Positions 1-48,344 of a stretch of 64,000 nucleotides of DNA are shown here, piece after piece (position 1 is the stretch's first letter; each line of letters begins with the position of its first letter). The notes beneath the pieces were generated by a model, which did no database searches, was not told the DNA's origin, and saw only the letters and a list, made by a program, of their open reading frames with translations. The stretch spans positions 9,114,001 to 9,178,000 of the forward strand of contig CM060734.1 of the NCBI GenBank assembly GCA_030704615.1. Reading direction: 5' to 3'. The DNA is from Takakia lepidozioides. Taxonomy: Eukaryota > Plantae > Bryophyta. A program made the position numbers and the translations under genes.

Positions 1-323
1 AAGTTATTTTACCACTAGTGTGAAACTAGCTAGGAAATAGCTAGCTTTTACATATTGACATTTGGGATTGGCCCAAGTGTCAATCCAGGGATCAAGGCAG
101 ATTTAGGCCCTGGAGTGGTTATCTTCACGGCAAGTGCAGGAGGCTCATCTTTCTCGAGTTGAGCCTCACCGCGCCTAGCTATGGCGTCGTAGTGTGGATT
201 CCCCATGGCGTGGGGTGCACTTGGCTTGACTTGTATTTGAGTGATGAGGTTATATATGCATGAGTTTATGCTTCAGCTTTGTGAACTCACATGAGCTTGT
301 GCTTGTATTCTTCTTCTTTATCA
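1..323 (+). repeat. 5' terminal repeat, segment A (ends ...TTTATCA)
   Basis: Near-identical to 9405-9726 and homologous to 16687-16998. Confidence 0.95.
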
Positions 324-339
324 CTCGAGAAAGATGAGC
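324..339 (+). promoter_or_regulatory. Self-priming primer-binding site (Tf1/sushi type)
   Basis: CTCGAGAAAGATGAGC, immediately after the repeat, is the exact reverse complement of GCTCATCTTTCTCGAG at 143-158; no TGG-starting tRNA PBS is present. Confidence 0.8.
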
Positions 340-2943
340 TCGTATCTGTGAGTGCCAGATACGAGTTAGTTGTAGCACTTGTGGTTTTTGCTTGAGGATG
401 AGAGAAACTAGGTTGTTATGCAAGGAGCACGTGGAGCCCTTGGTTGTTAGAAGCGGAGACGATGTGGGTTATGAGGTGGTAGACCTTGGCCATCACAGCC
501 CCACAGGCCACAGGGCACAGGGCACAGCCTGTCACAACCCGCCACAGCCCGTCACAGCCCGTCACAGCCCCATCCATGGCCACTCATGACAGTTTAGCCA
601 TTTCTCCAAGGGGTTTAGCCACGCCAAGCTAGGGTTTGTGTCTCTTGGACTCTAGGCTTCTTTGCACCGAACTATGGTGGCTGTGAGGAAATCAACGAGG
701 TATTCTTGCTCTTTGTGGCCCCCACGCACCACCAATAGTATCTCTAATTCCAAAGGAAGATGTTTGCAACCGAAACTAAGTGCACAAGCTTCCTTTTAAC
801 TCACAAAAGAGCGCCATTGATCCCTATGGCGACTAACCAAACATGGCTGACTTCCAGCCCTTGTAGGCACTTATTCATGCGCTCTCCTTGGCCATAGAAT
901 GTGTCTTAGAGCCTATTCCAGCCCCCTACACCTACCACTTCAAGAGCCATGCTCTATCTAGGCTTGTAGTTGAAACCCCAACTCAGAACACGATCTACAA
1001 GTGTCGGACTGTCACATAAGAGCAGATCAGCCCCTTACCTTCTCTTCTAGCTCTCCAAAGCTTTAAAGATGGAGGCCTAACTAGGCTGAATGCATGCTCC
1101 ACACATGCCCTACAGGGAAACCAACTCCTTCATTCATTTCTTGCACTCCCAAACCTGAAAATGCAAGCCTTCAATGAGCTGAAAGCACGCTCCACACATG
1201 CGTTGCCCTCACATAAGAGAAGTAAGCCCTTCCCTCTTCCTTGCTTGCCCTCCAAGCTTGAAGATGGAAGCTTCAATGGGCTGCATGCATGCTCCACACA
1301 TGCATCCTCTTCACACAAGAGGTAATATCAGCCCCATATCTTGGCTCCTTGGCTCCTTGATGCTCTCTAAGACAAGACTAAGCACTCCACAGCCTTTGCC
1401 AAGCTCTTGAAAACCTAAGGCTTACATTTCCAACCACTTCCTCTTGTGGTGCAAGAGCTCTTCTTCCAAGCTCTGAAACCCTAGGTGCACATTCCATGGC
1501 CTTGCCGCACCTCTTAGCTCATGTTCCAGCCCTGCTCTTGCCATGACAAGAGCCCTCTCAATGCTGAAGCTCGAGATTGAAACCCAATCTCAACATACTC
1601 CACAAAGTGCACTGATTTGCCCCGAGTCAAATCAGCCCTTTCGCTTGGTCTTGCAGTCCTTCACACAATGAAAGCTCGCATTCCCAAGTCCAGTTCTCAG
1701 CTTTGCCACCAAAGCCACTATAACCTGCTCTTGACTGGTCCTCTTCCCAATCGTGCTTGCTCATGCATGTACACAATCTGAAACCATCAAGGTGCTCTGG
1801 AATTACTTGCAGCATGGTGCTTTCATCTCTGAAGCTGAAGATCGAATGGACTGTGATGGGCTGTGATAGGCTGTGACATGTGGCCTTTGGGGTTGTGATG
1901 GCCTGTGACCTGTGGCCTTGGGGGCTGTGAGGGGCTGTGACAGGCTGTGACCTGTGGCCTGTGGCTTGTGTGGGGTTGTGACGGCTGTGACCAGTGGTCT
2001 GTGTGGGCATGTGCTGGTCTGTGGTGGCCCGTGTTGACATGTGGACGGCCTATGCTAACTCATGGAGGCGCTGGTGGGCTGCCTGAGGACTAGCATGCGG
2101 TCTTGAAGGTCAAATTTTGAAGCTCGTGGAGGGCGGTTTGAGGAGTATCTTCATGATATTTCCATGGTCATGCAAGTGAGGGAAGAGAGGAGAAAAAGAG
2201 TGTTGGGATGAGGGCATGCTGGGGTTAGACATTGCTTTAGCTTCTTTTCCTTGTAGTTTTCCACCCTCTCATTAGGCCAAGACCTTTCCGTAGGTGGAGG
2301 CAAGAGTCAGTTCGGGTTTGGGCTGGGGTGTCCTTGCAGGAGCAACACCGTGGAGATGTTTTTGGTGTGGGGGAGTTGTCGTTCTGATTTCTTGTGTTTG
2401 GATCCCTTCCATACCTACATGCTTGACTGTGCGCCATGTTAGTTTTATGTGGGCGCTTGTTTTTATAGGTGATTGGTCCGGATTTGATCACCGGCCAGTC
2501 CTAGAGCATGCTGTCAATGGTGAGGCTGGGGTGATGACCAGTCAGACCATCATTGTTTCTCCAGTGGTGAGGTTGGAGGTGATGACCAGCCAACCATAGG
2601 AGTGCTTGCGGTGGATGCAGGTGCAGGTGTAGGCTATGTTAGAAACCTAGTATTCCAAACCATAAGCCGCAACAGGTTCTCTATCCGGTTACCTTGTGGA
2701 GAGGGGGTTAGGGACATGTTCATAACCGGTTGAGTGACAGTTTCTCAACACGGAGGTGCCACTAGTTGCTGGGGACAGTGCCGGTTCAAGCACTAGCAAT
2801 ACTAGTGGGTACACGAGACGAGGTGTGCGGTTTAGGCCACCTACACCTCCTGTGTCTTCTACGGAAGTTCTGATTCGGATTGTGAATCAGGACGACTCAC
2901 ACCGGCGGTGCAAGTTGGTTCCTTGCCATTGTTGTGGGACACA

Positions 2944-4170
2944 ATGGAAGAGATGTATGGAGCTACCAAGGGGCCACGAAGGTACTCTGGGGCGGTGGGC
3001 ACCATCGAGTTGGATGATTTTATCCAAGAGTTTGATAGTTGGTGTGATTTGCAGCAAATGCGCAATCCACAACTATTTACGCCTTTCATGGCATGGAAGG
3101 GGCTGTTTCAGCACCTTGAGGGGCCGCCTATGGATGATTATCATGAGTTCAGGCGGGGGCATGAGGTTGAGATCGAGGAGTGGAGGATGTACTGGTCACC
3201 CGACTATGTCTCCATCACTAGGGGCACTAGAGCCACGAGGGCAGTGGCTACACCTGCCGCTGCACCGGCAGCTTCAGCAAGCAACAGTGGGACTAGTGGG
3301 ACTGGTGGTACCGTAGCTACGACGTCCACCCAAGCCACTACCGCACCAGCACCAGTACCCGTGCCTGCCTTCAACCCTGTTGTGGAGTTCTTCGAAGAGT
3401 TGAGAAGGAACTACCAAGGGGTGATGACAGAGAAGTTGCGGAGCTTGCAAGAGTTCCAATAGAAGCCTACTGAGAGCTTGAGGGAGGCTTTCACTCGCAT
3501 GAGGGCTTGATAAATGTAACCCAAGGGGTTACGGAAGCTCAGGCAGTCCAATTCTGGTATGGGATATTGGACAATGAGCTGAGGAGAAGGGTGCGGGATG
3601 CAACTCTCCACAAGCGGCCCAACCCACCTTAGCAAATGTGTTTTTGCTGGTAGAGCGGATAGAGCTCAACATGGTGAAGGAACGAGTGGTCATGGTAGGA
3701 TTTGCTAAGGAGACACCACGGGGTAGTGGTGCTCCTAGCCAACCACTACCTCAACGTGCTCAAGGTAACAAGGGGGCTCAGGTGAAGCTCATGGAAGGAC
3801 AGAGAGGACCTCAGATGCAGGGATCTCTCCCTTCATTTGCAGGCCAACAACGGGCGGAGGTGGTGTGTTGGACATGTGGAGGACCCCATGTTAAGAAGGA
3901 TTGCCCAGAGGGAGGCAAAGGGCCGGCACATGCACAGCCTGCACAGTTGCAGTGTGGGCATTGTGGCAAGCACGGGCATGGAGAGGCCCAGAGTTATGGT
4001 TTGCATCCTGAGTTGCGCCCAGGCCAGTTCCAAGGGAACAATGGTGGCCGGGGGCGAGGTCGGGCAGCCCAGAAAGGACGAGGTGGCCAGGCACGAGGGC
4101 AAGCTCAACATGGCCAATGACGTGAAGGTCAGGGTGTTGACCAAGGCATGGCCAACCGGCTTCAGCAGCT
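2944..4170 (+). pseudogene. gag: gag with two CCHC-type zinc knuckles (copy 1)
   Basis: ORF pieces 2908-3462 and 3638-4120; CWTCGGPHVKKDC and CGHCGKHGH motifs; collinear with the copy 2 ORF 10251-11438. Confidence 0.85.
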
Positions 4171-4859
4171 AGAGTAGATGCTCGCTGCCATAGCTACAGC
4201 TCAGGTGGTACCGGCTCCAGGCCGGATGGTCCACCTCCTGCTCCTGAGGGAGGAGATATGGGAGGCATGGGATTCATGTGCGGAGCAGCACTACCACTAG
4301 TGCAGGTGGAGTCTGCTGCAACCGTGACTCGGGGAGCAGCACGAGTTCCTGAGCCACGAGGTGCAGAGGTGGAGTTGGATCCACAGCGTGGGGAGGCAAG
4401 CCGTCAGGCTAGGATTCCTCAGTCATTCACATTGGCGGAAACAATGTCGACGCCATCCATGGCACCTAGTTCTCGCCCGACTGTTACCGAGGCGGAGGTT
4501 ACTATGTCATTGGGGAGAGCTACACGGGTAGCACCACTACCTAGTATTGCCAAGGCTACGGCAGCTAGTGTGCTGTTGGGAGCGGCCACATCTGTGTGTC
4601 AGGCTCCATTGTTCTCGGCTACCATGATTGCGACGTCGAGGGTAAGACCAGCTGAGGTGTTCAGGCTGGCAACTACACTCTGTGAGAGTGGGGAGGTTAC
4701 TTCATCTTCTACAGAGATAGTGAGAGGTCTAGTGCCGGAGGGATCCTCGGATTTGAGGGTCAAGACTGCCACGACGGCGCCATGGCAAGCTACAGCTGTC
4801 AGGTTGATGAAGCTGTCAGCTAGGCCAGCCATTGAGCACGCCATGGTGACACCTGGAGT

Positions 4860-5250
4860 TGTCATGTTAGACAACCAGGCTGACATTTTCTGTTTGAGTG
4901 GACCGGCAGGCAAGAGGTACCGGCCACTGCGGGTCTTGCTGGACTCAGGAGCTCAGCCATTGATGCTGGGTAGAGCTGTTATTGCAGGCTTGGGCCTCAC
5001 GGAGGCGGATATGGAGCTGTGCCCTTTCCAGATATAGACGTCTCTGGAGGATCGGAGCATGCTCGGGGCATGACACGGCGTGAGTTGGCTATCAGACTAC
5101 GGCCGGATCACCCTACAGATGGCTCAATGATGCAAGCCAAGGCCATTGTGACAGACGCGGTCTCATACGATGTCCTGGTTGGTGGGGCAGTGTTGTACCC
5201 CATGGGCTTCACCCTGGATTTTTGGGAGGAGTCAGTTTCCTATAGGCTGG
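4860..5250 (+). pseudogene. Retroviral-type aspartic protease (copy 1)
   Basis: RVLLDSGAQ catalytic motif and downstream YDVLVGG motif; frameshift near 5037. Confidence 0.85.
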
Positions 5251-5639
5251 ATGGCAGTCAGGGGAGGGCCGACGTGTGCAGCTCCCTGTGACGTTCATAG
5301 GAGGAGTTGCGGTTGCCCAAGGGGCAAGATGCCGACACTAGCAGCATTCACAGCTGCAATGAGTTGGCCTGGAGAGTTACTTGAGAGCAATGCTCATTCA
5401 GAGGATGACACACCTCTAGGAGAGCAGGTTGACATGTATGGTATGGCGGAGTTGTCTGCCATGGTTGCTCATACTCCATTGTGGGCTCGAGCAAGGATTT
5501 GCAGCGGGTTGCTGATCGACGGGTGCAACAAGCCTGGGTAGAGGCTTTTGTACCGTCAAGAGAGGAGGACAGTGCGGGGATTGCACCAGGACCACCTCAA
5601 TTGTCACCATTGGACACCATACCGATCGTGTGGCAGTAT

Positions 5640-6620
5640 CCAGATGAAGGCATTTGTCTTCTGGACTTGTTTGGCGGATCAGCACCGGATTGGCTGCTGT
5701 GTTACAAGCAAGTGTACGAGTTTGGCGTTACATGTATGTGGAGAGGGATGAGATTGCACGACATATTTCACTTTGCCATGTTGCTCAGTTGGTGCAGCAG
5801 TACCCTGAGTTGTTGCCGGTGTCTGCAGTTCGTGGATATCAGCAGGCCTTGCCAGCAGACATTTCGTTGCTGGGGGCGCAGGATTTGGAGCGGGTTGGCT
5901 CCATTGATCTGGTAGTGGCAGGTTGGCCCTGCCAAGGGCATTCATCAGCCGGGCATGGCAATGGATTGCAAGACTCGAGGTCGGGTCTGTTTTGGGAGAT
6001 GGTACGGGTTTTGCGCCACTTGCAGCTTCATCAAGCTGTATCTCCAGCATATATCTTGGAGAATGTGCCACTGATGGGCGATTCTCGGGCCAGGGTGATG
6101 GCCAGTGTGCATCAAGTCCGGTCGTGGCTTGGGTCAGCAGTGTTGCTAGATGCAGCTGTAGTGGGGTCATGGGCTCATCGTCCCCGGCTATGGTGGACTA
6201 ACTTGATGTCACCCGCACTGCTTAAGCGTGCATTTGATGGGGTGCAGCGACCAGCACACCTCATAATGGATAGCATTTTGGACACATGGAGGCAGTCTCA
6301 GCGTGTGAGATACGATGACCGTTCGCCTTTGGCAGTGGTCAATAGGGTGGGTCAACCACGAGCAGCATTACCTACACTGCTCAGCTTCCCAAGATCGCAT
6401 GCTTTCCGGGATAGTGGACCTGGCCTCCTGTGGGATGCTCAGTTGTAGCAGTTAGTGGAGCCTAATGCTGACGAGCGTGAGCGGGCAATGGGTTTTACCA
6501 CTGGTACCACGGCGGTGTCGTCTCTTTCTGAGGCATCACGTCGTCAGGTGTTGGGGCAAGCAATGGATCTCAATTGCTTGACCTGGATTATCAGCTTGGC
6601 TATGGCTGAGCAACGCAGAG
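5640..6620 (+). pseudogene. C5 cytosine DNA methyltransferase, DNMT3-like, inside the polyprotein (copy 1)
   Basis: Motif I LLDLFGG (frameshifted), IV VVAGWPCQG, VI YILENV, VIII AHRPRLWWTN, IX ERERAMGF, X RRQVLGQAMD, all in canonical order. Confidence 0.92.
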
Positions 6621-6894
6621 TGCGGAGTACACTTCCCTCGCTGGTCTCTCTGCCTACCGAGACGGTACAGGCAGTGAATGGGGGCGAGCATGTGAGGACC
6701 ACGGGGTGTAGCCATCCATGGCACACGTGGGAGGTGCTCGAGGTTTAGAGGGAGTTGGCAGCCAAGGTGGCGGTGATGGATGAGGTTGGGGATTTTTCTC
6801 GGGTTGAGGAAGTCCTCGAGGATAATATGCAGGAGAGGAGCATCCTCATTCATTTTCCAGCACTCCACCTCTTCGCATTTCACTCGGAGAAGTT

Positions 6895-7262
6895 AGCTCA
6901 AGGCGAGGTTGACCTCGGCGCCTATCCTGAGACGACCTATCAGGGGGCGTCCCTTTCAGCTGCATACGGATTGGAGCATGCTGGGGCTTGGAGCGGTGCT
7001 CACACAGGTGGATGATGAGCGAAGAGAGTTCGTAGTGACTTATGCTAGCCGCTCGAACAACGCTGCAGAGGCTAAGTACAGCTCATATGAGGGAGAGTGC
7101 TTAGCTGCAGTGTGGGCCGTGGCACACTTCAGGTGCTATCTATACAGCAATCTCTTCACCCTTGTCACGGATCACCAACCACTCAAGTGGTTGATGGAGT
7201 CAGACAAGCTTACGGGGAAGCTTGCACGGTGGGCACTCGTACTCCAGGAGTATGACTTTTAG
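6895..7262 (+). pseudogene. Ty3/gypsy RNase H (copy 1)
   Basis: LTSAPIL, FQLHTDWS, YASRS, YSSYEGECLAAVWAV, LVTDHQPL and RWALVLQEYDF motifs. Confidence 0.93.
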
Positions 7263-7265
7263 GTT

Positions 7266-8960
7266 GTGCATCGACCGGGTTTGGTCAATCGGGATGCGGA
7301 TGGATTGAGTCGCAATCCATGCACGAGCCAGCAGGATGACACTGGAGTTCGGTGGCATGGTGAGACGGATGAGGAGATGGTGTCGGGATGGCACGCATAT
7401 GCCTTTTTGTGTATCTTGGCATCGGGAGGTCAGGTTGGACCTACAACAGGGATGACTATAGACGGAGTGTCTGAGGACCCTGAGGCTAGTGATGAGCCAG
7501 GTGGTGCCAGAGATATACATGAGGATTTGGCTGTGTTGGACTACCTCCGCACGGGAGACACGGCAGCCACTGTGACTGCCAGGAAGAGGGATCGGATCCT
7601 GCAACGAGCCAAGAGGTTCAAGTGGGAGGGGATACACTTGCTTCGAGTGTGGGAGGATGGTCGGGTGAGGATCGTGCCTCACCCAACACAGCGTGCACGG
7701 TTAGTGCGGCATGCCCATGAGGAGTTGGGGCATTTTGGAGTGCGATGCACTCACAGTTTACTGCAGGGGCAGTATTGGTGGCGTGGTATGCATACAGAGG
7801 TGCAACAGTTCGTGGCTAGGTGCATGGTGTGTGACAGGGTGCGTGCTTCATTCAACGCCCCTACACCACAGTTGCATCCTTTACCAATCATGGGATTGGG
7901 CTATAGGTGGAGTCTTGACTTCGCAGGACCGTTGCCACTAACTATGCACCACCACAAATATGCGTTGGTGATGGTGGAGCACTTCTCCAAGTGGATTGAG
8001 TTGGTTCCATTGCCTGACAAGGCTAGTGAAGGGGCTGCGTATGCATTCCTGGATCGTGTGCTTAGCCGATTTGGTGCTCCAGCTGAGGTACTCACGGACC
8101 AAGGAAGAGAGTTCTTGGGGGAGTTTCAGGTTTTGTGTGATAAAGCCTTGATAGACCACCGCACCACTTCTCGGGATCATCCTGAGGCCGATGGCTTGGT
8201 AAAGCAAGTTGTTCAGACGGTGAAGAGGGGTTTGCGCAAGTATGGCTTGCAGAAGGGACACCTAGGAGATTGGGATCTTCAGGTGCCTTGGTTAGCCATG
8301 GGCTACAGATTCAGCAAACAAGCATCACTTGCCTCTTTCTCACCATATTTCCTTCTCGTTGGCCGAGAGCCGGATTTGCTTGCAACCTTTCGTAGGGACA
8401 CTGCTCAAGTCCTTAACCTTGACGATCCGGACGTGTGGGTACGTGCATGTGGTCAGCGTGCAGAGTTGTTCATGAAAGTCATACCCATGGCTTTTGAGAA
8501 CCTTGCCATTGCACAACACCGTGATACGTTGAGGTATGCCACTATACGTGGTGGAGGATATCGTCCTGGGGTTCGGAGGTTTAGCCCTGGTGACTATGTT
8601 TATTTGCAGCAGACTACTCCTACGACCCTGGATGTCACTGCAGGGCGTGTTATTCTGAGGGTTCGAGAGGTGTTGCCCTCAAGAGTCCTGATATTAGAGG
8701 GTCGGGATGGCATGACTTGGAAAGACCATGTGCGTAATTGTGCGCCATGTCACCTTCTCAATGTCGATGGCAGAGTTGACCCAAACTTGGTAGCAGTGGT
8801 ACCTGCAGGTTTGAGGTGCATGCTCTGTGGGTCTGCCAAAGGGGCAGCCACCATGCTGGTGTGTGATCGATGCTCAAGAGGTTGGCATATGGGATGCTTG
8901 ACACCACCTCTTAAGAGGGTTCCTGATGGAGATTGGTTATATCCACACTGCTTGGGATAG
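7266..8960 (+). CDS. Integrase (HHCC zinc finger plus DDE core) with C-terminal PHD finger; open frame inside a defective element
   Basis: HEELGH...CMVC, WSLDFAGP, LTDQGREF and HPEADG motifs; C-terminal CMLC-x11-CDRC-x4-HMGC...WLYPHC (PHD, one Cys replaced by Tyr). Confidence 0.92.
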   Translation: MHRPGLVNRDADGLSRNPCTSQQDDTGVRWHGETDEEMVSGWHAYAFLCILASGGQVGPTTGMTIDGVSEDPEASDEPGGARDIHEDLAVLDYLRTGDTAATVTARKRDRILQRAKRFKWEGIHLLRVWEDGRVRIVPHPTQRARLVRHAHEELGHFGVRCTHSLLQGQYWWRGMHTEVQQFVARCMVCDRVRASFNAPTPQLHPLPIMGLGYRWSLDFAGPLPLTMHHHKYALVMVEHFSKWIELVPLPDKASEGAAYAFLDRVLSRFGAPAEVLTDQGREFLGEFQVLCDKALIDHRTTSRDHPEADGLVKQVVQTVKRGLRKYGLQKGHLGDWDLQVPWLAMGYRFSKQASLASFSPYFLLVGREPDLLATFRRDTAQVLNLDDPDVWVRACGQRAELFMKVIPMAFENLAIAQHRDTLRYATIRGGGYRPGVRRFSPGDYVYLQQTTPTTLDVTAGRVILRVREVLPSRVLILEGRDGMTWKDHVRNCAPCHLLNVDGRVDPNLVAVVPAGLRCMLCGSAKGAATMLVCDRCSRGWHMGCLTPPLKRVPDGDWLYPHCLG

Positions 8961-9209
8961 TGGCAGTGGCCATGACTAGAGGCAGCTAACAAGACATGAG
9001 AGGCCAAGCTCATAGGAGTCAATACACGAGATCCCAGGCTCAAGTTCACAGGTTGCAAGACGGCGACTAATGATGGGGCAACTCTTGCACCCGGCCTCTT
9101 GATCTATCGAGTTTGAGTGTAGTAGGGATAGTGGTGGAGGACTTAGTGAGGCTATGGTCACTATCACATCTTGTGGCTACCAAGACTTAGAGGGACCTAA
9201 GCACCAGCT

Positions 9210-9219
9210 AGGGGGACAA
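9210..9219 (+). promoter_or_regulatory. Polypurine tract (copy 1)
   Basis: AGGGGGACAA directly precedes the TG start of the 3' repeat; equivalent AGGGGGGGCAA at 16440-16450. Confidence 0.85.
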
Positions 9220-9220
9220 T

Positions 9221-9917
9221 TGTGTGGACTAGTGACTGCCATAGTGGGCAGCATAGTGGCAGCCTAGTGACTGACTAGTTGTAGCCTAGTGGTTGGACTA
9301 ATGGTGGACTAGTGGTATACTACTGTGTGTGCGTGCACATGTATTGTGTGGTTTTGGACAGCGATGTAGTTTGTGTAGCGATATGTATGCGCACGACAAC
9401 TGTCAAGTTATTTTACCACTAGTGTGAAACTAGCTAGGAAATAGCTAGCTTTTACATATTGACATTTGGGATTGGCCCAAGTGTCAATCCAGAGGTCAAG
9501 GCAGATTTAGGCCCTGAAGTGGTTATCTTCACGGCAAGCGCAGAAGGCTCATTTTTCTCAAGTTGAGCCTCACCGCGCCTAGCTATGGCGCCGTAGTGTG
9601 GATTCCCCATGGCGTGGGGTGCACTTGGCTTGACTTGTATTTGAGTGATGAGGTTATATATGCATGAGTTTATGCTTCAGCTTTGTGAGCTCGCATGAGC
9701 TTGTGCTTGTATTCTTCTTCTTTATCTATTGTGTGGACTAGTGACTGCCATAGTGGGCAGCATAGTGGCAACCTAGTGACTGACTAGTTGTAGCCTAGTG
9801 GTTGGACTAGTGGCTGGACTAGTGGTGGACTAGTGGTATACTAGTGTGTGGCGTGCACATGTGTTGTGTGGTTTTGGACAGCGATGTAGTTGTGTAGCGA
9901 TATGTATGCGCACGACA
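9221..9917 (+). repeat. 3' terminal repeat B1(9221-9398)-A2(9401-9726)-B2(9730-9917), copy 1
   Basis: B segment is duplicated on either side of A; homology stops at CACGACA. Confidence 0.92.
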
Positions 9918-10099
9918 ACTTTAATAACTGCTCAACCTCTTATGTCCATCCTCTATAATCAATCATCCATTTCTTCTATCATCCAGTCACGGGTAGACTA
10001 TCGGCTGCATACAAAATATCGAGGAACACTGCTCTATCGCAGCAATATCGAAGGTATCACAGAGTATATCAATAGAAAAATACACTAATTTTTTTTTAA

Positions 10100-10336
10100 A
10101 TCGTAGCCTCGCCAGTAATTCCTATTATTCTACACGTTCCTTCAGGGATTCGGATGTTGCCAATCTCTTGGTGATGGCTAGTCGCAATGAGGGAATCTCT
10201 ATTTCGATTGGCATAATGGACTCCACCCCGTAAACTAATGAAAAAGGGGTGTGTTGAGTGGTTACCTTATGTGTCGTGCAAAACGCCCACAAAGCTTAAA
10301 TCAACTTGGTGTCCCAATCCCGCTTATGCTCCCTCT
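10100..10336 (-). pseudogene. Fragment of an unrelated gypsy (Athila/Tat-like) integrase
   Basis: Manual minus-strand translation: HKRDWDTKLI*ALWAFCTTHKVTTQHTPFSLVYGVESIMPIEIEIPSLRL. Confidence 0.75.
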
Positions 10337-13044
10337 CAATCCACAACTGTTTACGCCTTTCATGGCATGGAAGGGGTTGTTTCAGCACCTTGAGGGGCCG
10401 CCTATGGATGATTATCATGAGTTCAGGCGGGGGCATGAGGTTGAGATCGAGGAGTGGAGGATGTACTGGTCACCCGACTATGTCTCCATCACTAGAGGTA
10501 CTAGAGGCACAAGGGCAGCAGCCACACCGGCAGCTCCACCAGCAGCTGCAGCTGCAACAACAGCTTCCACGAGCAGTAGTGGGACTAGTGGTACAACAAC
10601 TATGACATCCACCCAAGCTACTGCTGCACCAGCACCAACGCCCGTGCCTGCATTCAACCCTGTTGTGGAGTTCTTCGAAGAGTTGAGAAGGAACTACCAA
10701 GGGGTGAGGACAAAGAAGTTGAGGAGCTTGCAAGAGTTCCAGAGGAAGCTTACTAAGAGCTTGAGGGAGGGTTTCACTCGCATCAGGAGCTTGATTAATG
10801 TAACCCAAGGGGTTACGGAAGCTCAGGCAATCCAATTTTGGTACGGGATATTGGACAAGGAGCTGAGGAGAAGGGTGCGGGATGCAACTCTCCTACAAGC
10901 GGCCCAACCCACCTTAGCAAATATGTTTTTTCTGGTAGAGCGGATAGAGCTCAACATGGTGGAGGAACGAGTGGTCATGGTGGGATTTGCTAAGGAGGCA
11001 CCACGGGGTAGTGGTGCTCCTAGCCAGCCACTACCTCAACGTGCTCAAGGCAACAAGGGGGCTCAGGTGAAGCCCAGGGAAGGGCAGAGAGGACCTCAGA
11101 TGCAAGGGTCTCTCCCTTCATTTGCAAGCCAACAACGGGTGGATGTGGTGTGCTGGACATGTGGAGGACCCCATGTTAAGAAGGATTGCCCAGAGGGAGG
11201 CAATGGTTTGGCACCGGCACAGCCTGCACAGTTGCAATGTGGGCATTGTGGCAAGTACGGGCATGGAGAAGCCCAGTGCTGTGGTTTGCATCCTGAGTTG
11301 CGCCCAGGCCAGTTCCAAGGGAATCAATGGTGGCCGGGGGCGAGGTGGAGCAGCCTAGAGAGGACGAGGTGGCCAGGCACGAGGTGCAGGCCAAGGGCAA
11401 GCTCAACATGGCCAAGGACGCGGAGGTCAGGGTGTTGACCAAGGCATGGCCAACCGGCTTCAACAGCTAGAGCAGAGGCTGGCTGCCATGGCCACAGCTC
11501 AGGTGGTACCGGCTCCAAAGCCAGATGGTCCACTTTCTGCTCCTGAGAGAGGAGACATGGGAGGCATGGGGTTCATGTGCGGGGCAGCACTACCACTAGT
11601 GAGGGGTGCCACTACCACTACCACTATGGGTGGGGCACCACTACCACTAGTATCGGGCAACACTACCACTACCACTATGTGCGGGGCAGGACTACCACCG
11701 GTGCAAGTGGAGTCAGCTGCGGCAATGACTCGAGGAGCAGCACGAGTTCCTGAGCCACGGGGTGCGGAGGTGGAGTTGGATCCACAGCGTGGGGAGGCAA
11801 ACCATCAGGCCAGGCTTCCTCAGTATTCACATTGGCGGAGACAGTGTCGACGCCGTCCATGGCACCTAGTTCTCGCCCGACTGTTACCGAGGCGAAGATT
11901 ACTATGTCATTGAGGAGAGCTACACGGGCAACACCACTACCTAGTGTTGCCAAGGCTATGGCTGCTAGTGTGCTGCTGGGGGGGCCACATCTGTGTGCCA
12001 GGCTCCATTATTCTCGGCTACCATGATTGCGACGCCGAGGGTAAGACCAGCTGAGGTGTTCAGGCTGGTAGCGACACTCTGTGAGAGTGGGGAGGTTACT
12101 TCATCTTTTGCGGAGATAATAGGAGGTATAGTACCGGAGGGATCCTTGGATTTGAGGGTCAAGACTGCCACGGCGGCACCATGGCAAGCTGCAGCGGCCA
12201 GGTTGATGGAGCTGCCAGCTAGGCCAGCCATTGAGCGCGCTATGGTGACACCTGGAGTTGTCATGTTAGACAACCAGGATGACATTTTCTATTTGAGTGG
12301 ACCGGCAGGCAAGAGGTACCGGCCACTGCGGGTCTTGTTGGACTTGGGAGCTTAGCCATTGATGCTGAGCAGAGCTGCTATTGCAGGCTTGGGCCTCACG
12401 GAGGCAGATATGGAGTCGTGCCCTTTCCAGATACTGACATCTCTGGGAGGATCAGAGCAGGCTCAGGGCATGACACGGCGTGAGTTGGCTATTAAACTAC
12501 ATCCGGATCATGCTACAGACGGCTCAGTGATGAGAGCCAAGGCCATTGTGACAGACGCGGTCTCGTACGATGTCCTTGTTGGTGGGGCAGTGTTGTACCC
12601 CATGGGCTTCACCCTGGATTTTTGGTAGGAGTCAGCTTCCTATAGGCCTGAATGGCAATCAGGGGAGGGCTGGCGTGTGGAGCTCATTGTGACGTCCATA
12701 GGAGGAGTTGCGGTTGCCCAACGAGGCAAGATGCCGACACTGGCAGCATTCACATCTGCAGTGACTTGGCCTGGAGAGTTGTTGGATGGCAACACTCATT
12801 CTGAGGATGTGTCAACTCTGGGAGAGCAGGATGACATGCATGGTACGGCGGAGTTGTCTGCCATGGTTGCTCATACTCCATTGTGGGGCTCGAGCAAGGA
12901 TTTGCAGCGGGTTGCTGATCGACGGGTGCAACAAGCCTGGGTAGAGTCTTTTGTACCGTCAGGAGAGGAGGACAGTGCGGGGATTGCACCAGGACCACCT
13001 CAGTTGTCACCATTGGACACCACACCGATCGTGTGGTAGTGTCC

Positions 13045-14020
13045 GGATGAAGGCATTTTCCTTCTGGACTTGTTTGGCAGAATCAGCACCGGATTGGCTG
13101 CTGTGCTACAGGCAAGTGTACGGGTACGGCGTTACTTGGATGTGGAGAGGGATGAGACTGCACAACGCGTCTCACTCCGTCATGTTGCTCAGTTGGTGCA
13201 GCAGTACCCTGAGTTGTTGTCGGTGTCTGTAGTTCGTGGATATCAGCAGGCCTTGCCAGCAGACATTTCGTTGCTGGGGGTGCAGGATTTGGAGCGGATT
13301 GGCTCCATTGATTTGGTAGTGGCAGGATGGCCCTGCCAAGGGCATTCATCAGCCGGGCATGGCAATGGATTGCGAGACTCGAGGTCGGGTCTGTTTTGGG
13401 AGATGGTGCGGATTTTGCACCACTTACAGCTTCATCAAACTGTATCTCCAACATACATCTTGGAGAATACGCCACTGATGGGCGATTCTTAGGCCAGGGT
13501 GATGGCCAGTGTGCATCAAATCTGGTCGTGGCTTGGGTCAGCAGTGTTGCTGGATGCAGCTGCAGTGGGATCACGGGCTCATCGTCCACGGCTATGGTGG
13601 ACTAACTTGATGCTACCCGCACTGCTCAAGCGTGCATTTGATGGGGTGCAACGGCTAGCACACCTCACAGTGGATAGCATTTTGGACATAGGGATGCAGT
13701 CTCAGCGTGTGAGACACGATGACCATTCGCCTTTGGCAATGGTCAACAAAGTGGGTCAACCATGAGCAACACTACCTACACTGCTCAGCTTCCCATGATC
13801 GCATGCTTTCCGGGATAGTGGACCTGGCCTCCTGTGGGATGCTCAGTTGAAGCAGTTAGTGAAGCCTAATGCCGACGAGAGAGAGCGGGCTATGGGTTTT
13901 TCCACTGGGACCACGGCAGTGTCTTCTCTTTCTGAGGCATCACGTCGTCAGGTGTTGAGGCAAGCGATGGATCTCAATTGCTTGACCTGGATTATCAGCT
14001 TGGCTATGGCTGAGCAACGT
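13045..14020 (+). pseudogene. C5 cytosine DNA methyltransferase, DNMT3-like (copy 2)
   Basis: LLDLFGRISTG, AGWPCQG, ILENT, AHRPRLWWTN, ERERAMGF and RRQVLRQAMD motifs; in-frame stops. Confidence 0.9.
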
Positions 14021-14494
14021 AGAGTGCGGAGTGCACTTCCCCTGACGGTCTCTCTGCCTACCGAGACGGTACAGGCAGTGAGTGGGGGCGAGCCGGTGAG
14101 GACCACGGGGTGTAGCCATCCATGGCACACGTGGGAGGTGCTCGAGGTTCAGAGGGAGTTGGCAGCCAAGGCGGCTGTGATAGATGAGGTTGGGGATTCT
14201 TCTCGGGTCGAGGAGGTCCTCAAGGATGAGATGATGGGGCAAGATGAGGCCTTATCAATGACTGAGCAGGCAGGGAGTACTGCTCATGAGGTTGCGGCAT
14301 AACAACCACGAGTCACGTCTCCTACCTCTAAGTCTGCTGGACTTAAGGTTGCAGTTACGGAGGACAATTGGGAGCCTGACATTGGACCCATTGTCACTGG
14401 AGGAGAGAGACGACGTATACGGCGGTTCCTGAGGGCTTACAGGAATTGTTTTGTCTCTCGTGTTACGGTGGAGGAGCATGAGAGACATGTTTAG

Positions 14495-16190
14495 GTTGTG
14501 CATCGACCGGATTTGGTCAATAGGGATGCGGATGGATTGAATCGCAATCCATGCATGAGCCAGTAGAATGACACTGGAGCTCGGTGGCATGGTGAGACGG
14601 ACGAGGAGATGGTGCTGGGATGGCATGCATCTGCTTTTTTGTGTATCTTGGCATCGGGAGGTCAGGTTGGACCTACAACAGGGATGACTGTAGACGGAGT
14701 GTCTGAGGACCCTGAGGCTAGAGATGAGCCAGGTGGTGCCAGAGATATACATGAGGATTCGGTTGTGTTGGACTATCTCCGCACTGGAGACACGGCAGCT
14801 AGTGTGACTTCCAAGGAGAGGGATTGGATCCTGCAACAAGCCAAGAGGTTCAAGTGGGAGGGGATACACCTGTTTCGAGTGTGGGAGGATGGTCGGGTGA
14901 GGATTGTGCCTCACCCAACACAGCGTGCACGGTTAGTGCGACATGCCTATGAGGAGTTGGGGCATTTTGGAGTGCGACGCACTCATAGTCTACTGCAGGG
15001 GCAGCATTGGTGGCATGGTATGCACATAGAGGTGCAACAATTTGTGGCTAGGTGCATGGTGTGTGACAGGGTGCGTGCTTCATTCAATGCCCCTACACCA
15101 CAGTTGCATCATTTACCCATCATGGGATTGGGCCATAGGTGGAGTCTTGACTTCGCAAGGCCGTTGCCACTGACGATGCGCCACCATAGATATGTGTTGG
15201 TGATGGTGGAGCACTTCTCCAAGTGGATTGAGTTGGTTCCATTGCCTGACAAGGCTAGTGAGGGGGTTTGCGTATGCATTCCTGGATCGTGTGCTTAGCC
15301 GATTTGGTGCTCCAGCTGAGGTACTCACGGACCAAGGGAGAGAGTTCTTGGGGGAGTTTCAGGCTTTGTGTGATAAAGCCTTGATAGACCACCGTACCAC
15401 TTCTCGGGATCATCCTGAGGCCGATGGCTTGGCAGAGAAAGTGGTGCAGACAGTGAAGAGGGGTTTGCGCAAGTATGGCTTGCAAAAGGGACACCTAGGA
15501 GATTGGGATCTTCAGGTACCTTGGTTAGCCATGGGCTACAGGTTTAGCAAGCAAACATCACTTGCCTCTTTCTCACCATATTTCCTTCTCTTTGGCCGAG
15601 AGCCAGATTTTCCGGCGTCTATTCGCAGGGAGACTGCAGTAGTCCTCAACCTTGATGATCCGGATGTGTGGACACAAGCATGTGGCCAGCGGGCAGAGTT
15701 GTTCAAGAGGGTCATGCCTATGGCTTTTGCGAACCTTGCTATTGCCCAATACCGAGATACATTGAGGTATGCCACTATACGTGGAGGGGGATATCGGCCA
15801 GGTGTTTGGCATTTCCACCCTGGGGACTATGTATATCTGCAGCAGACAACGCCTACGACCTTGGATGTTACAACAAGACGTGTGATTCTAAGGGTCAGGG
15901 AGGTGTTGCCTTCAGGAATGTTGATTCTGGAGGGTCGAGATGGCATGGTATGGAAGGACCATGTGCGCAATTGTGCGCCATGTCACCTTCCACATATGGA
16001 TGGGATGATAGATCCCAACCTTGCAGTGGTACCTGCAGGGTTGTGTTGCATGCTATGTGGGCATGCTCGTGGTGCCGCCACTATGCTGGTGTGTGATTGA
16101 TGCTCAAGAGGTTGGCACATGGGATGCTTGACACCATCTCTTGAGAGGGTTCCTGATGGAGATTGGTTATGTCCACACTGTTTGGGATAG
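14495..16190 (+). pseudogene. Integrase plus PHD finger (copy 2)
   Basis: ORF pieces 14609-15298 and 15228-16100; the PHD continues past a CGA>TGA stop to WLCPHC. Confidence 0.9.
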
Positions 16191-17183
16191 TGGCAGTGGA
16201 TATGACTAGTGGCAGTTAACAAGACATGAGAGACCAAACTCATAGGAGTCAATACCCGAGATCTCAGGCTCAAGTTCACAGGTTGTAAGACGACAACTAA
16301 CGATGGGGCAACTCTTGTACCCGGCCTCTTGATCTATCGATTTTGAGTATAGTAGGGACAGTGGTGGAGGACTTAGTGAGGCTATGGCCACTATCACATC
16401 TTGTGGCTACCTGGACTTAGAAGGACCTAAGCGCCAGCTAGGGGGGGCAATTGTGATGGACTAGTGGCAGCCTAATGATGGACTAGTGGCTGCACTAGTG
16501 GTGGCTAGTAGCAGCCTAGTGGTGGACTAGTGGCTGCACTAGTGGTGACTAGTGGTTGTCTAGTGGCAGCCTAGTGGTGCACTAGTGGTGGACTAGTGAT
16601 AGACTAGTGTTTGGTGTGCACATGTGTTGTGTGGTTTTGGAGAGCGATGTAGTTGTGTAGTGATATATATGCGCATGACAGCTGTCAAGTTATTTTACCA
16701 CTAGTGTGAAGTTAGCTAGGAAATAGCTAGCTTTTATATGTTGACATTTGGGATTGACCCAAGTGTCAATCTAGGGGCCAATATATGTTTGGGCACCTGG
16801 CGTTGTTATCTTCACGGCAGATCGCGGTGGCTCATCTTTTTTGAGTTGAGCCTCACCGCGTCTAGCTATGGCGCCGTAGTGTGGATTCCCCATGGCGTGA
16901 GGTGCACTTGGCTCGACTTAATATATGAATGATGTTTTCATGTGCAAGTATGTGAGTTTGAGAGAGCTTGTGTGCTTGTATCATTCTTTTCTTTATCATT
17001 GTGATAGACTAGTGGCAGCCTAGTGATGGACTAGTGGCTGCACTAGTGGTGGCTAGTGGTTGTCTAGTGGCAGCCTAGTGGTGCACTAGTGGTGGACTAG
17101 TGATAGACTAGTGTTTGGTATGCACATGTGTTGTGTGGTTTTGGAAGCAATGTAGTTGTGTAGCGATATGTATGCGCACGACA

Positions 17184-27060: not shown

Positions 27061-28470
27061 TCATTTTGAGAATGAATTCAGGTAGTTCCAGAGAATGGTG
27101 GTGCCAGCTACCTTGTCACCCAAAGTGACATCCACTTCCAGGGCTGCCTTGAAATACATATCCACCAAGGCAGTGTTTAGAGTGACAACTCTAGCTTTGA
27201 CGATGTCATCATGGACCTTTGTGCCCTTTTGATGGCTGCCAGGCTCACATTTGACGTAGATGTACACTAGATGTTCAGAATGACATCTGGTACAATTCCA
27301 GCTTGGATAATGTCACCATAAACCTCTTTGCCCCTTCCCAGGGCTGCTAGGCTCGCATATGCATATTACAAAAACAAATGAACATGACGGCCTGGTCTGG
27401 CTTCATCCCTTCCCACATCATTTGCTCTTATGTTTCCAAAGCCTTAATCCCATACCTATGCTGCACATACCTTGCAATCATGGCACTCCAAAATACCACA
27501 ACTCGTTCAGCCATATTGTCAAACTCTCCCTTCACATCAGACTTGCTGCACCCACATTTGGCATACATGTCCACCAAGGCAGAGTTCAGAATGACAATTT
27601 CCCCTTTAACGATCGGCATAAGCAAGGGGAAGGAAACAGCAGAGCTGCTGCTCTCTCCCAGCGCCAAAAAAACCAAAAGAAAAAAAAATGGAGGGGCTGA
27701 GAGAGCCGCCATGGCTGTGAAGTACCAGTATGCTGCAACGTGATGTGGTTGGGCTTCACCCCTTCCCCCATCAATATTTGATCATAGGTCTCCAAAGCCT
27801 CCATACCATGTCCCTGCTGTGCATACCCTGCAAGCATCACCCATTCACAATCTCCAACCCTGCCAACCCAGTATATAAACAGACTACACATAAGTTCCTT
27901 GCTTGGCATCCTCAATGCACCCACATTGGGCATACATGTCCACCAGGGCAGAGTTTAGAATCACATCTGGTACAATTCCAGCTTTGACAATGTCATCATA
28001 GACCTCTTTGACCTTTTCCAGGGCTGCCAGGCTTGCATAAGCATTGCAATCACACAAAAACGTGATGTGGTTGGGGCTTCACCCCTTCCCCCATCATTTG
28101 ATCATAGGTCTCCAAATCCACCATCCCACGCCCTGCTCTGCATACCCTGCGATAGTTGTGAGTGTGTACCTGCTTTCCAGCTTCCAGACCTTTTTGGCAT
28201 GAATCCACATCATTTGTTGGCACTAGGAAAGGGTTGAGACTGAGCTGCTCAACTACTCCCTGGTCTTACATAGTGGGTTTACATAGTGTGCCAAGCACAA
28301 CATCTGGAGCCAAAGCCTCCATCCAGTGCCCCTGCTGTGCATACCCTGCAAGCATCGAGTTCTACGACACCACATCAGCTCTGACAATGTTGCCATGGGC
28401 CTCTTTGCCCTTTTCCAGGGCTGCCAGGCTTGCACACGCACTGCAACCGCACACAAACCTGATCAGCCCA
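27061..28470 (-). pseudogene. Additional scrambled PPR motif fragments
   Basis: NTALVDMY, NSALVDMYAKCG and GMEALETYDQ fragments separated by unrelated filler. Confidence 0.8.
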
Positions 28471-39095: not shown

Positions 39096-39369
39096 AAATA
39101 AATATCCAAAATGTCCTAGTTAACTAAAAGCAGGTGATTCTAGTTAACCATGACTAACCATGACATTTAAAAAGACAATTTAAAATATGATCTAATTAAT
39201 TGTTGCAAAAAGAAATTATAAAGAAAAATAGGGTATTATGAAACAAAGGGTTTTACAATATTACCTAAAGATAGGGTGGAAAAAAATGCAAAATTTTAAA
39301 AATATCGCCTAGTATAAATATACCTTTGTACGCACGTGATATGGAAAAAATACATATAGTGACCCCCCC

Positions 39370-43397: not shown

Positions 43398-44420
43398 ATG
43401 GGGTACTTCTTACCTTCACACATGGATCAAGGGCTCATCTTTGTGGTCCTGGGAGTATGGCACATTGCCAATACTCTACACAGCTACATAAAGTACCCCA
43501 GAGACTTTAGGGCGAGGCCATGGTTTCCAGTTCCACAGCTTCCGGGCTTACTCAGATGTATGGAGCTATGGGTTTTGTTATTCATAGTGGTGCTCTTCAT
43601 GGGGAAGCAGCTGTCACACGCGCAGCCAGATTTGATCTCGGGGGTTATACAATCTGCGCACATGCAACGATTCCAGCATGTTACATTTGCAGTCTTCTTC
43701 TTGACTTACGTGATTGCAGGCATAGTGAGCGAGAATTCGACCGTGCTACCCCTGCCCAATGGGGTCCTGAATGCCACATTCGCACTTGGTTTTTTGATGG
43801 AGCTTCTTGTGTTTAAATTTGGGCATCACCCCGGAGATGACCTCGAGCACTTTGTGCACATGCTGATGGAGCTCATTTTGGCGTGTCTGGTAATCTTGAT
43901 GTTTCTTGAGAATCTGTGGCCACGCAGCATTCTCATTGCCGTCGCACGATGCATGGTCCTCACAATGAAAGGCACATGGTTCTTCCAAATTGGTTTTCTG
44001 CTCAATATCCCTTACTACATTCCCTTGGGATGCAGCACGACTCCAGAGAAGGATTTTCCAGTTTGTGAGGGCGCTCCCGCTCAAATGAGGGCCAAGTCAC
44101 TGCAGGTTCTTGTTTTTGGGTGGCAAGCATCTGGGATTGTGATGGCGACTTTTGTTGGCTATGCCTTGATGCTACACTACTTGCATCCACGGCTTGTGCT
44201 AACTCCAAAAGGAGCAGTGACTCCAAAAAGTGGCCTTACTCCAAGAAGCAAGGATCTTAGCCAACTAGCGTACTGTGTTGTTGATACTGGTGATGACTCT
44301 GACGATGGTGACGAAACCGATGAGCTTGATGCCGATGGAATCCCCATGCTTAGCACCCGTCCCCGCTCATTGTCTAGGCGCATGGGCAGCAGAAATGCGA
44401 AGGTACCTCCCAATGTATAG
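43398..44420 (+). CDS. DUF716 / TMEM45-like multi-pass membrane protein, single exon, 340 aa
   Basis: Intact ATG-to-stop ORF with several hydrophobic segments; family-like motifs GVWH, PWFP, QH-TF, ELLVF-FGHH and GTWFFQIGF. Confidence 0.85.
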   Translation: MGYFLPSHMDQGLIFVVLGVWHIANTLHSYIKYPRDFRARPWFPVPQLPGLLRCMELWVLLFIVVLFMGKQLSHAQPDLISGVIQSAHMQRFQHVTFAVFFLTYVIAGIVSENSTVLPLPNGVLNATFALGFLMELLVFKFGHHPGDDLEHFVHMLMELILACLVILMFLENLWPRSILIAVARCMVLTMKGTWFFQIGFLLNIPYYIPLGCSTTPEKDFPVCEGAPAQMRAKSLQVLVFGWQASGIVMATFVGYALMLHYLHPRLVLTPKGAVTPKSGLTPRSKDLSQLAYCVVDTGDDSDDGDETDELDADGIPMLSTRPRSLSRRMGSRNAKVPPNV

Positions 44421-47560: not shown

Positions 47561-48344
47561 TGCTTATGATGTTTTTTTCTCCAAGCTCAAATCACCAACA
47601 AACTCTTGTTGTACAAGATTATACCTTACTAGTATCCCATGGCTTTGAGCCCATAACTCCAATCTGGAGTGCCCTTGCTGGAACTCCCTTGGCTTTGAGT
47701 TCATCACTCCAAATCGGAGTGTATTTGCTACCCTTCTGTCAAAGCCAAAGAAATGTAAGTACATCAACATGAGAGAGACGGAACAAAAAATGAGAGGGGT
47801 AGATGGTGTGTACAAACACCTCATAAGTACACTGGTCAAAGGAAGAGAGGGAAGATATTAATGTCATGTCAAGACACAGACAAGACCAGTAGGGTCATTG
47901 TTAATTAAAGACATCATCAGCCCTTTACAGGGCACCATCTAATACCTCCTTCCATGCACATCTCCTCAAAATAATTAGGGTGGGAGGGTGGGGTCTTTTT
48001 CATAAGAGAACAACCATATGCCAAGAGCAGGAATGGGTTTGAGGAGAGTATGCAATTGCCATACAATCAAAGGGACCCAAAGATTACAATTTTTTGTTGT
48101 TTGAAGCACGTTGAGCATTTAAATACAAGCTGGAGGTATTCCAATAGCTTACAGCAAATAGACAAAGGGCTTTGGTTTTGCTGGCCTCCAAGAAACTTTC
48201 AAGTAATTACCAGGTGACAGGCTCATTCAAGAATACTGGTTTGGTAATCTTAAGACTCAAGCAGCTTAGAAATTGAATGTAATAAGCTTAACAGGTCAGG
48301 TGGAAACCATTCAGCCATGTCTAAGAATGTAATTTGGGAGTCTC

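Follow-up and report, generated by a model that had tools for sequence, protein, structure and literature searches.

The window analysed here, the entire stretch of 64,000 nucleotides from Takakia lepidozioides (assembly GCA_030704615.1, contig CM060734.1, positions 9,114,001 to 9,178,000 of the forward strand), carries two copies of what is read, on balance, as a Gypsy family of seed-free land plants in which a DNMT3-like enzyme ends the Gag-protease frame and likely methylates the element's own cDNA, and in which the integrase likely opens an end-joined circle at an internal site. The identification as a Gypsy element bearing a DNA methyltransferase (DNMT) domain, and the family nature of that arrangement, are close to certain.

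Element copies in the window

Copy 1 occupies positions 1-9917 and is already cut by the window start, and copy 2 occupies positions 10337-17183 and is 5'-truncated; the two are 91% identical over 2559 nt of the protease-methyltransferase region. Both are dead copies (pseudogenes) of one Gypsy-type family, because each has a frameshift or stops in the methyltransferase domain and because the reverse transcriptase (RT) core, absent from both through different deletions, has been lost. The coding features were placed as follows.

2944..4200 (+): frameshifted Gag of copy 1, including its zinc-knuckle region (aligned by tblastn from residue 1 of Marchantia Mp4g09160)
4860..5270 (+): copy 1 aspartic protease, frameshifted, LLDSGA at 4936-4953 (motif, profile and tblastn)
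5640..6620 (+): copy 1 DNMT3-like C5 methyltransferase, motifs I-X in canonical order, with a 1-nt gap near 5675 and TAG at 6446
6830..6896 (+): copy 1 junction at which the ORF1 stop and the entire RT core are deleted (the copy 1/copy 2 alignment stops at 6829; ORF2 of locus L032 aligns from residue 360 at 6897)
6897..7260 (+): RNase H of copy 1 (E 2e-35 to PF17917)
7263..8960 (+): integrase of copy 1, comprising an H2C2 zinc finger and an rve core and followed by a PHD finger at the C-terminus (PF17921, PF00665, PF00628)
10337..12660 (+): copy 2 remaining Gag and protease, LLDLGA at 12335 (copy alignment, tblastn, motif)
13040..14030 (+): copy 2 DNMT3-like domain in a single frame, stops at 13490, 13763 and 13796 (profile and motifs)
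14309..14490 (+): start of the copy 2 RT ORF, followed by deletion of RT and most of RNase H (alignment)
14495..16190 (+): copy 2 integrase and PHD finger, frameshifted (tblastn)

An integrase rve domain was present, and no tyrosine recombinase was matched in the scanned ORFs. In one DNA run (X1), 117,507 contigs fall on positions 1-17300, and the family is therefore abundant in this host, although copy number is unreadable from contigs. A 2173-nt contig from run X12 (possibly RNA, the kind of run being guessed) bridges 14453 to 6895 with approximately 920 letters between, which shows that an RT-sized segment is present in the family; transcription cannot be read from this contig. A search of sequencing runs listed no RNA run containing the element, which has no bearing on expression.

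Several other observations were made in the window. The 5' untranslated region of copy 1 contains inverted arrays of short ACAGCC/GGCTGT repeats at 480-580 and 1848-2030, which could pair over about 1.3 kb, and the same 10 bases occur at the 5' break of copy 2 (10335-10344) and in its 3' flank (17185-17194), perhaps as deletion microhomology. A long ORF with no Pfam match is found in two copies of 72% identity, at 17183-18556 (-) and 58472-59790 (+); the former abuts Gypsy copy 2. By eye the ORF has an RT-like motif and is possibly another retroelement. Other Gypsy fragments were located at 10130-10336 (-), integrase-like by eye, and at 48324-48593 (+), RT by tblastn. A LINE with endonuclease and RT domains (39265-41608, -), a degenerate PPR repeat array broken by frameshifts (27270-30910, -), and a near-identical direct repeat (54998-55812 and 60918-61732, spacing 5920 bp) were also recorded.

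Methyltransferase domain

A C5 methyltransferase domain had been proposed in both copies by the first-pass annotation, and PF00145 matched each of them there, at 5648-6445 in copy 1 (E 3.8e-13, 50 bits) and at 13040-13489 in copy 2 (E 7.9e-12, 45.7 bits), where the Pfam cut-off is 22. The position between the protease and the site of RT/RNase H was likewise recovered in both, with LLDSGA (4936) or LLDLGA (12335) upstream and RNase H/integrase/PHD sequences downstream. The motifs, all on the + strand, were located at the following coordinates.

5664-5678 (+): copy 1 DLFGG
5921-5935 (+): copy 1 GWPCQ
6056-6067 (+): copy 1 ENV
6176-6196 (+): copy 1 HRPRLWW
6473-6496 (+): copy 1 ERERAMGF
6539-6556 (+): copy 1 RRQVLG
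13067 (+): copy 2 DLFGR
13325 (+): copy 2 GWPCQ
13460 (+): copy 2 ENT
13580 (+): copy 2 HRPRLWW
13877 (+): copy 2 ERERAMGF
13943 (+): copy 2 RRQVLR

The accompanying claim that both copies hold all core motifs stands insofar as every motif can be located in canonical order and needs correction in that not all are intact. Motif I of copy 1 lies in another frame, owing to the 1-nt gap, and the TAG interrupts the domain downstream; an extra base at 5675 was present in contigs of three DNA runs, and the gap is therefore not common to all copies. Besides its three stops, copy 2 has changes in motif I (G>R), motif VI (V>T) and motif X (G>R).

Likeness to DNMT3, which had been suggested from the motifs, was upheld by searches of solved structures with both sequence and fold. 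When the window domain was searched against PDB sequences, DNMT3A was the best match (E 1.2e-7), followed by DNMT3B, HhaI, and DRM2, and the same order of matches was obtained with a Marchantia relative. An AlphaFold model of a relative 73% identical to the window domain (P0003) had a pLDDT of 89.8, and all 32 Foldseek matches listed for this model were DNMT3A, DNMT3B or DNMT3C (best E 6.7e-19, TM 0.83 on the target). The domain is accordingly classed as DNMT3-like, as judged from its closest solved sequences, the matches of its predicted fold, and its unrearranged motifs. A DRM identity was rejected because the motif order is canonical, I to X. The element domain is intronless, and DUF3444, the mark of host plant DNMT3, was not matched in 23 relatives or in L032.

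Relatives of the element

The window copies, at 91% identity, would by themselves be insufficient to show that the domain is a feature of the family, as had been proposed; the relatives do show this, with the domain at the same position in named liverwort and moss proteins and in 79 metagenome loci. Searches found 164 relatives of near-equal length and 56 longer ones. Those with names, at 57-72% identity, come from Marchantia polymorpha, M. paleacea, Calypogeia fissa, Sphagnum, and Riccia, and are mostly annotated as hypothetical proteins. One Marchantia cluster has 18 members, several with complete Gag-protease-DNMT ORFs of approximately 1280 aa. The V sex chromosome carries several Marchantia members (P0260, P0261 and others), and two of these have complete ORFs of 1281 aa. 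One member of 48% identity (P0035) is annotated in a bacterial metagenome-assembled genome and is probably plant or algal contamination.

The 79 metagenome loci were all picked by the presence of the DNMT domain; many are close to Sphagnum proteins, and some represent one insertion in different assemblies. RT follows DNMT in 48 of them, and Gag, protease, DNMT, RT, RNase H, integrase, and PHD occur in that order in nine. One locus (L032) has two open ORFs in a single frame. A quick tree of 83 element-borne domains placed the window copies in a 17-row clade with bryophyte proteins (SH-aLRT 99); the tree is unrooted, comprises element-borne domains only, and has about a quarter of its 'A' labels set by hand on short proteins without a second domain.

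A profile search returned 474 clusters at E values up to 1e-30. The commonest domain orders among the 150 proteins of at least 900 residues with the domain were RT-RNase H-DNMT-integrase-PHD (47), which includes a Scenedesmus pol protein (P0342, KAF8056149.1), and protease-DNMT (43). The two orders separate in the unrooted quick tree with a support of 93, and single-ORF forms (P0281, P0289) lie in deeper branches. The names among ten deep-branching proteins are Scenedesmus only and those among ten others Marchantia only. A second, very diverse group (P0165, P0171, P0342, and about 80 others, including a chlorophyte) has the DNMT3-like domain between RNase H and integrase. An atlas search yielded only PF00145 clusters, one of them streptophyte, and among 21 pattern matches in an IMG/VR scan there was no relative. 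The two positions of the domain, before RT and between RNase H and integrase, suggest one early capture followed by a move, not a capture confined to Klebsormidium.

Conserved stop between methyltransferase and RT

The order of the element is Gag-zinc finger-protease-DNMT-stop-RT-RNase H-integrase-PHD. At the boundary between DNMT and RT, an in-frame stop followed by CAR-YYN was present in 38 of 40 distinct loci (29 TAG, 9 TAA); the exceptions were L041, which has TAG TAG, and L039, which is out of frame. The placement of the domain between protease and RT that had been proposed earlier is thus refined, since a conserved stop parts the two. In the window this site is kept in copy 2:

14300..14308 (+): copy 2 conserved ORF1 stop and hexamer TAA CAA CCA, predicted readthrough site into RT (boundary comparison)

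The context of the stop resembles UAG-CAR-YYA, a readthrough signal of plant viruses. The strict CAR-YYA context follows only six of the 38 stops, and most rows come from one family. By this comparison of loci, the methyltransferase appears as the end of the Gag-protease ORF, cut off from RT by the conserved stop, and there is good reason to expect that RT is made by readthrough of that stop. Control of Gag-Pol by an in-frame stop has been described in fission-yeast elements (bioRxiv 10.1101/2022.12.06.519325). The Gag-protease-DNMT protein would be abundant, and RT, RNase H, and integrase would be obtained through readthrough at TAG-CAR-YYN. As translation would reach the stop only past the methyltransferase, the enzyme would be produced together with Gag and in excess of RT and integrase; particles would then take it up in Gag-like amounts, and the protease would release it.

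Element ends and proposed integration route

The element is delimited by repeats of two kinds, designated A and B, whose features were mapped as follows.

1..323 (+): copy 1 5' repeat B1, its first 4 nt beyond the window edge, with predicted promoter, R, and U5 (96.9% identical to 9405-9727)
143..158 (+): predicted self-primer (mRNA 5' end), exact reverse complement of 324-339 (17-nt Watson-Crick run including the A at 323, reached by 0 of 500 shuffles)
324..339 (+): putative primer-binding site right after the CA of B1, paired with the self-primer rather than a tRNA (same pairing, with other letters, in L038 and L045)
9208..9219 (+): polypurine tract immediately before A1 (sequence; kept in relatives)
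9220..9398 (+): copy 1 repeat A1, ending CGACA (97.7% identical to A2)
9394..9405 (+): A/B junction CGACA-ac-TGTCA, where integrase is predicted to cut (the ends of related elements fall there)
9401..9727 (+): copy 1 repeat B2, starting TGTCA (repeat comparison)
9729..9917 (+): copy 1 repeat A2 and element 3' end, the B2/A2 join resembling an LTR-LTR circle junction (repeat comparison)
16451..17183 (+): copy 2 3' repeats, A1 at 16451-16680, perfect palindrome TGACA-gc-TGTCA, B2 at 16683-16998, and A2 at 16999-17183

Each window copy has A-B-A at its 3' end and copy 1 begins with B, so that the ends are B and A and not two identical full LTRs. The 5' end of copy 1 and its target duplication lie outside the window, and the ends are known from relatives. 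In these, all 13 B copies at 5' ends (12 insertions) start TGTCA with host flank and none has A upstream, the five B copies that are preceded by A are all internal, and 14 A ends meet host flank. The reading that each end carries an ordinary A+B LTR, the additional A being accidental, was rejected because no 5' end has A. The B-internal-A-B-A layout was found in L038, L054, L066, L073, and both window copies, and the B-internal-A layout in L012, L021, L025, L026, L031, L034, and others. A 4-bp target duplication around B...A was exact in four of the five relatives with both ends (L031, L038, L040, L054), and that of L025 had one mismatch. The name Gypsy retrotransposon given in the first-pass annotation is borne out by the protease-RT-RNase H-integrase order (in relatives), the DDE integrase, and the TG...CA ends and short duplication of relatives, with the qualification that the repeats are split and DIRS-like instead of two ordinary LTRs.

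Self-primer pairing extends over 16-17 nt in the window, L038, and L045 and over 9-10 nt in five more elements, and is at chance level (4-6 nt) in five of the 13 5' ends. In L038 and L045 the pairing is 16 bases long with differing letters and lies about 30 bases after a TATA-like box. No tRNA primer site was recognised by eye after B. From the self-primer, the primer site, and the purine tract we infer a working LTR of A+B, in the self-priming geometry of Tf1. The mRNA would start in B and prime itself as in Tf1, a step suggested by the covarying 16-nt complement, and the plus strand would begin at the purine tract before A, giving a linear cDNA of the ordinary kind, flanked on either side by A+B.

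With a working LTR of A+B, the A2 repeat would therefore be without an RNA template. The identity of A1 and A2 within an element is 97.7% and 94.0%, versus 83.8-86.3% between the window copies, and A2 would therefore be remade from A1 in each cycle; in the L038/L054/L066 set the within-element identity of 93.8% only just exceeds some of the values between elements, which reach 92.9%. The B/A2 joins keep one purine of the tract end, and such a join looks like the right end of the cDNA fused to the left. The A/B junction consists of CA-nn-TG inside a near or perfect 12-bp palindrome, and the integrase likely opens an end-joined cDNA circle there. In this step the ends would be joined (B/A), the integrase would cut CA-nn-TG between A and B, and the product would be inserted as B-internal-A-B-A with the 4-bp duplication that is seen in relatives. 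The B-internal-A form could arise from the cutting of a one-LTR circle, from the cutting of both A/B sites of the linear cDNA, or from later A-A recombination; lacking a 3' R, it would be a dead end. An end-joined intermediate is considered reasonably probable.

The B-internal-A-B-A arrangement may instead have been copied from a transcript spanning A2 by a DIRS/PAT-like template switch; the integrase would then process, in the usual way, a linear cDNA bounded by B and A, and no circle would be involved. The layout is that of split-repeat DIRS elements (PMC5890265), and TGTCA/TGACA are ordinary integrase ends with a 2-nt spacer. This explanation is nevertheless considered unlikely in view of the fit of the self-primer, primer site, and purine tract to an A+B LTR, which would leave A2 untemplated, of the homogenised A1 and A2 within elements, and of the B/A join, which looks like a flush end-join.

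Possible substrate of the methyltransferase

The first-pass annotation had put forward, as hypotheses, that the protease releases the enzyme, that it travels in the particle, and that it methylates cDNA or the integration site, whether for self-silencing or to imitate host chromatin. Methylation of cDNA has been proposed for Dnmt3-carrying elements (PMC5890265), and in the end-joined-circle reading preferred here the cDNA is slightly favoured as the main substrate of the enzyme. In this last and weakest step of the cycle, the methyltransferase would act on the cDNA in cis, most likely at CG as do animal DNMT3 and SymbioDIRS-Dnmt3, the latter of which methylates CG de novo in yeast (PMC5890265), and the new copy would arrive already marked. 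The PHD finger would steer insertion by histone state.

The same element could instead employ its enzyme during integration or later, with the insertion site or, in trans, genomic copies as the target, for self-silencing or control of copy number. The location of DNMT in the abundant Gag ORF, not fused to RT, is compatible with this, and the chlorophyte form, with DNMT beside integrase (the order of 47 of the 150 long proteins), would carry the enzyme to chromatin. The polyprotein position has been argued to favour action in cis (PMC5890265). The arginine codons of the element decay by CpG-type changes, from which the host appears to methylate element copies already, and this alternative is given a low probability. 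CpG depletion was rejected as a sign of self-methylation, being uninformative, because the observed/expected CpG ratio of the element copies (0.47) is about that of the host gene (0.53).

A wider form of the circle-and-cDNA reading, in which an old green-plant Gypsy lineage extending from chlorophytes to mosses and liverworts would propagate only via an end-joined circle opened at the internal palindrome, with DNMT3 at Gag-like amounts methylating that circle, is put forward tentatively, the balance lying somewhat against it.

Selection on the methyltransferase

Values of dN/dS were calculated by the NG86 method on reference-anchored codons, and values printed as 0.0 were saturation artefacts and were left out. 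The DNMT domain gave 0.06-0.10 in six pairs of the window with L001, L002, L004, L054, and L005 that had finite dS (2.4-3.5, near saturation), and 0.15 and 0.21 in two further between-family pairs, the latter being L005/L004. Set against the Ka/Ks below 0.2 reported for the Klebsormidium element, most between-family pairs with finite dS thus fall at 0.06-0.15 and one at 0.21. For L032/L033, at a dS of 0.26, the ratio was 0.12 for DNMT, 0.13 for protease, and 0.04 for RT. The window pair gave 0.41 for DNMT versus 0.20 for integrase, and decayed sisters of the Sphagnum-like family gave 0.72-0.88 for DNMT versus 0.47-0.73 for integrase. Judged by these ratios, decay dominates among sister copies, and DNMT appears to have been under constraint in active lineages, though to a somewhat lesser degree than RT and integrase.

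The catalytic residues were kept in most of the distinct loci covering the respective column (C in 63 of 67, E in 61 of 68, N in 67 of 68). Neutral evolution of these residues, the outcome that the first-pass annotation had set against its own reading, was not borne out, as C, E, and N are largely kept and between-family dN/dS is low. Very probably, the enzyme is under selection for catalysis. Retention of the domain as a non-catalytic DNA/RNA-binding or structural part of Gag-Pol, which would accord with the lack of methylation seen in yeast with the Klebsormidium domain (PMC5890265), is improbable given that F-x-G, PC, ENV, HR-x-R, and the LG of motif X are kept across families with saturated synonymous sites.

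Land-plant setting

A host gene was identified in the window downstream of the element copies:

43398..44420 (+): intact intronless DUF716 gene (25 matches; 11 of 11 named matches are mosses, liverworts or a lycophyte)

Its best named identity is 57%, to Sphagnum, and a quick tree groups it with bryophytes against the lycophyte with a support of 93. The earlier assignment of the stretch to a land-plant genome is supported by this gene, whose named matches are all land plants and which points to a seed-free host, probably a bryophyte. The possibility that the domain reflects a host DNMT3 fragment captured by chance in a single lineage, an error of assembly or contamination from an alga, for which the broken state of both window copies might speak, is dismissed as extremely improbable in view of its constant position in the named bryophyte proteins and the 79 loci, the 117,507 contigs on the stretch, the land-plant matches of the neighbouring gene, and, unlike host plant DNMT3 (PMC6453930), the lack of an intron and of a DUF3444 match.

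The first-pass annotation knew of no description of the element type in embryophytes, and a full-text literature search, with most subscription journals and Repbase outside its scope, agreed with this, finding no account of such elements in embryophytes, of the circle route or of the stop. In the portions of two Marchantia methylation papers that were available, DNMT-bearing elements are unmentioned, and the available portions of later papers of the de Mendoza group assign such elements to 'streptophytes' with land plants unnamed.

Significance of the family

The kind of element is already known from a close algal relative of land plants, Klebsormidium, and finding the domain in land plants extends its range. 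New are the B-internal-A-B-A and B-internal-A layouts with 4-bp duplications, the predicted A+B LTR with self-primer and polypurine tract, the stop after DNMT, and the chlorophyte RNase H-DNMT-integrase order. The more surprising parts are the end anatomy and the Gag-side position of the enzyme, both of which we infer.

LTR circles are usually regarded as dead ends. The target duplications around B...A point to a Gypsy integrase inserting from a circle cut inside the LTR, and such a route would explain the DIRS-like repeats noted, unexplained, for the Klebsormidium element. Elements of this layout would be overlooked or wrongly bounded by standard LTR finders. It has been a puzzle since 2018 that retrotransposons should encode an enzyme whose usual effect is to silence them, in part because the hosts known so far are difficult to work with experimentally. 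Marchantia members with complete methyltransferase ORFs make the role of this enzyme testable in a genetic model plant through knockouts, methylation mutants, and methylomes, and, if the present reading is true, both the circle route and the purpose of a transposon DNMT3 could be tested in Marchantia polymorpha. The relatives are annotated as hypothetical proteins, and their genes may distort tallies of host DNA methyltransferases and the interpretation of bryophyte methylomes.

Comparison with known systems

The closest described element is KnitGypsy-Dnmt3 of Klebsormidium nitens, in which an intronless Dnmt3 lies in a Gypsy Pol with Ka/Ks <0.2 (de Mendoza et al. 2018, PMC5890265). Its repeats are described as 'the same as that of a DIRS retrotransposon', and its enzyme gave no methylation in yeast, a result that the authors call inconclusive (PMC5890265). 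The window family shares with it the Gypsy domain set, the intronless and unrearranged Dnmt3-like domain, purifying selection, and DIRS-like repeats (PMC5890265); its host is an embryophyte, whereas that of KnitGypsy-Dnmt3 is a charophyte. In KnitGypsy, DNMT is in one ORF with RT and RNase H (PMC5890265 review file), whereas here it is in the same frame with a conserved stop between. On domain order, PHD, target duplication, self-priming, and integration route of KnitGypsy there is no statement in the available portion of PMC5890265, which treats the capture as an event of the K. nitens lineage, whereas the relatives found here span liverworts, mosses, and Scenedesmus. No protein named as Klebsormidium was among the relatives found by the searches, and the window family, likened to KnitGypsy-Dnmt3 through its published description, is probably its land-plant branch.

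SymbioDIRS-Dnmt3 of Symbiodinium also has a Dnmt3 domain inside a retrotransposon with split repeats, but differs in its tyrosine recombinase, absence of a DDE integrase, dinoflagellate host, and independent capture (PMC5890265). DIRS/PAT elements likewise have a tyrosine recombinase, whereas an rve integrase and, in relatives, target duplications are found here. Host plant DNMT3 (PpDNMT3a/b) has the same DNMT3-type catalytic domain but is marked by a C-terminal DUF3444 (Yaari et al. 2019, PMC6453930), which is not matched here, and DRM has rearranged motifs in contrast to the I-X order of the element domain. Among green-lineage Gypsy elements, Gypsy-7a_cRei of Chlamydomonas has a PHD, with no C5 methyltransferase reported in the available part of the source (bioRxiv 10.1101/2022.06.16.496473), and EpiLTRs/DAM-LTRs have methyltransferase domains, those of EpiLTRs being DNMT4-related and accompanied by Dam and a chromodomain (bioRxiv 10.64898/2026.05.21.726589).

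The Tf1/sushi-type and Tj1/Tosmo elements resemble the window family in a self-primer that pairs just after the 5' LTR and in an in-frame stop with readthrough; their stop lies between Gag and protease, whereas here it follows Gag-protease-DNMT, and they have ordinary LTRs and a chromodomain, in contrast to the split repeats and PHD found here (10.1101/2022.12.06.519325). The integrase of foamy virus cleaves palindromic 2-LTR circle junctions (Delelis et al. 2005, PMC1180852), and the proposed chemistry of circle opening is therefore plausible. The likeness is that a DDE integrase acts on circular cDNA by cleaving it at a palindromic CA-n-TG junction, a reaction that is predicted here; in foamy virus the cut at the LTR-LTR junction restores the linear form (PMC1180852), whereas in the window family the cut would fall inside the LTR and permute the element.
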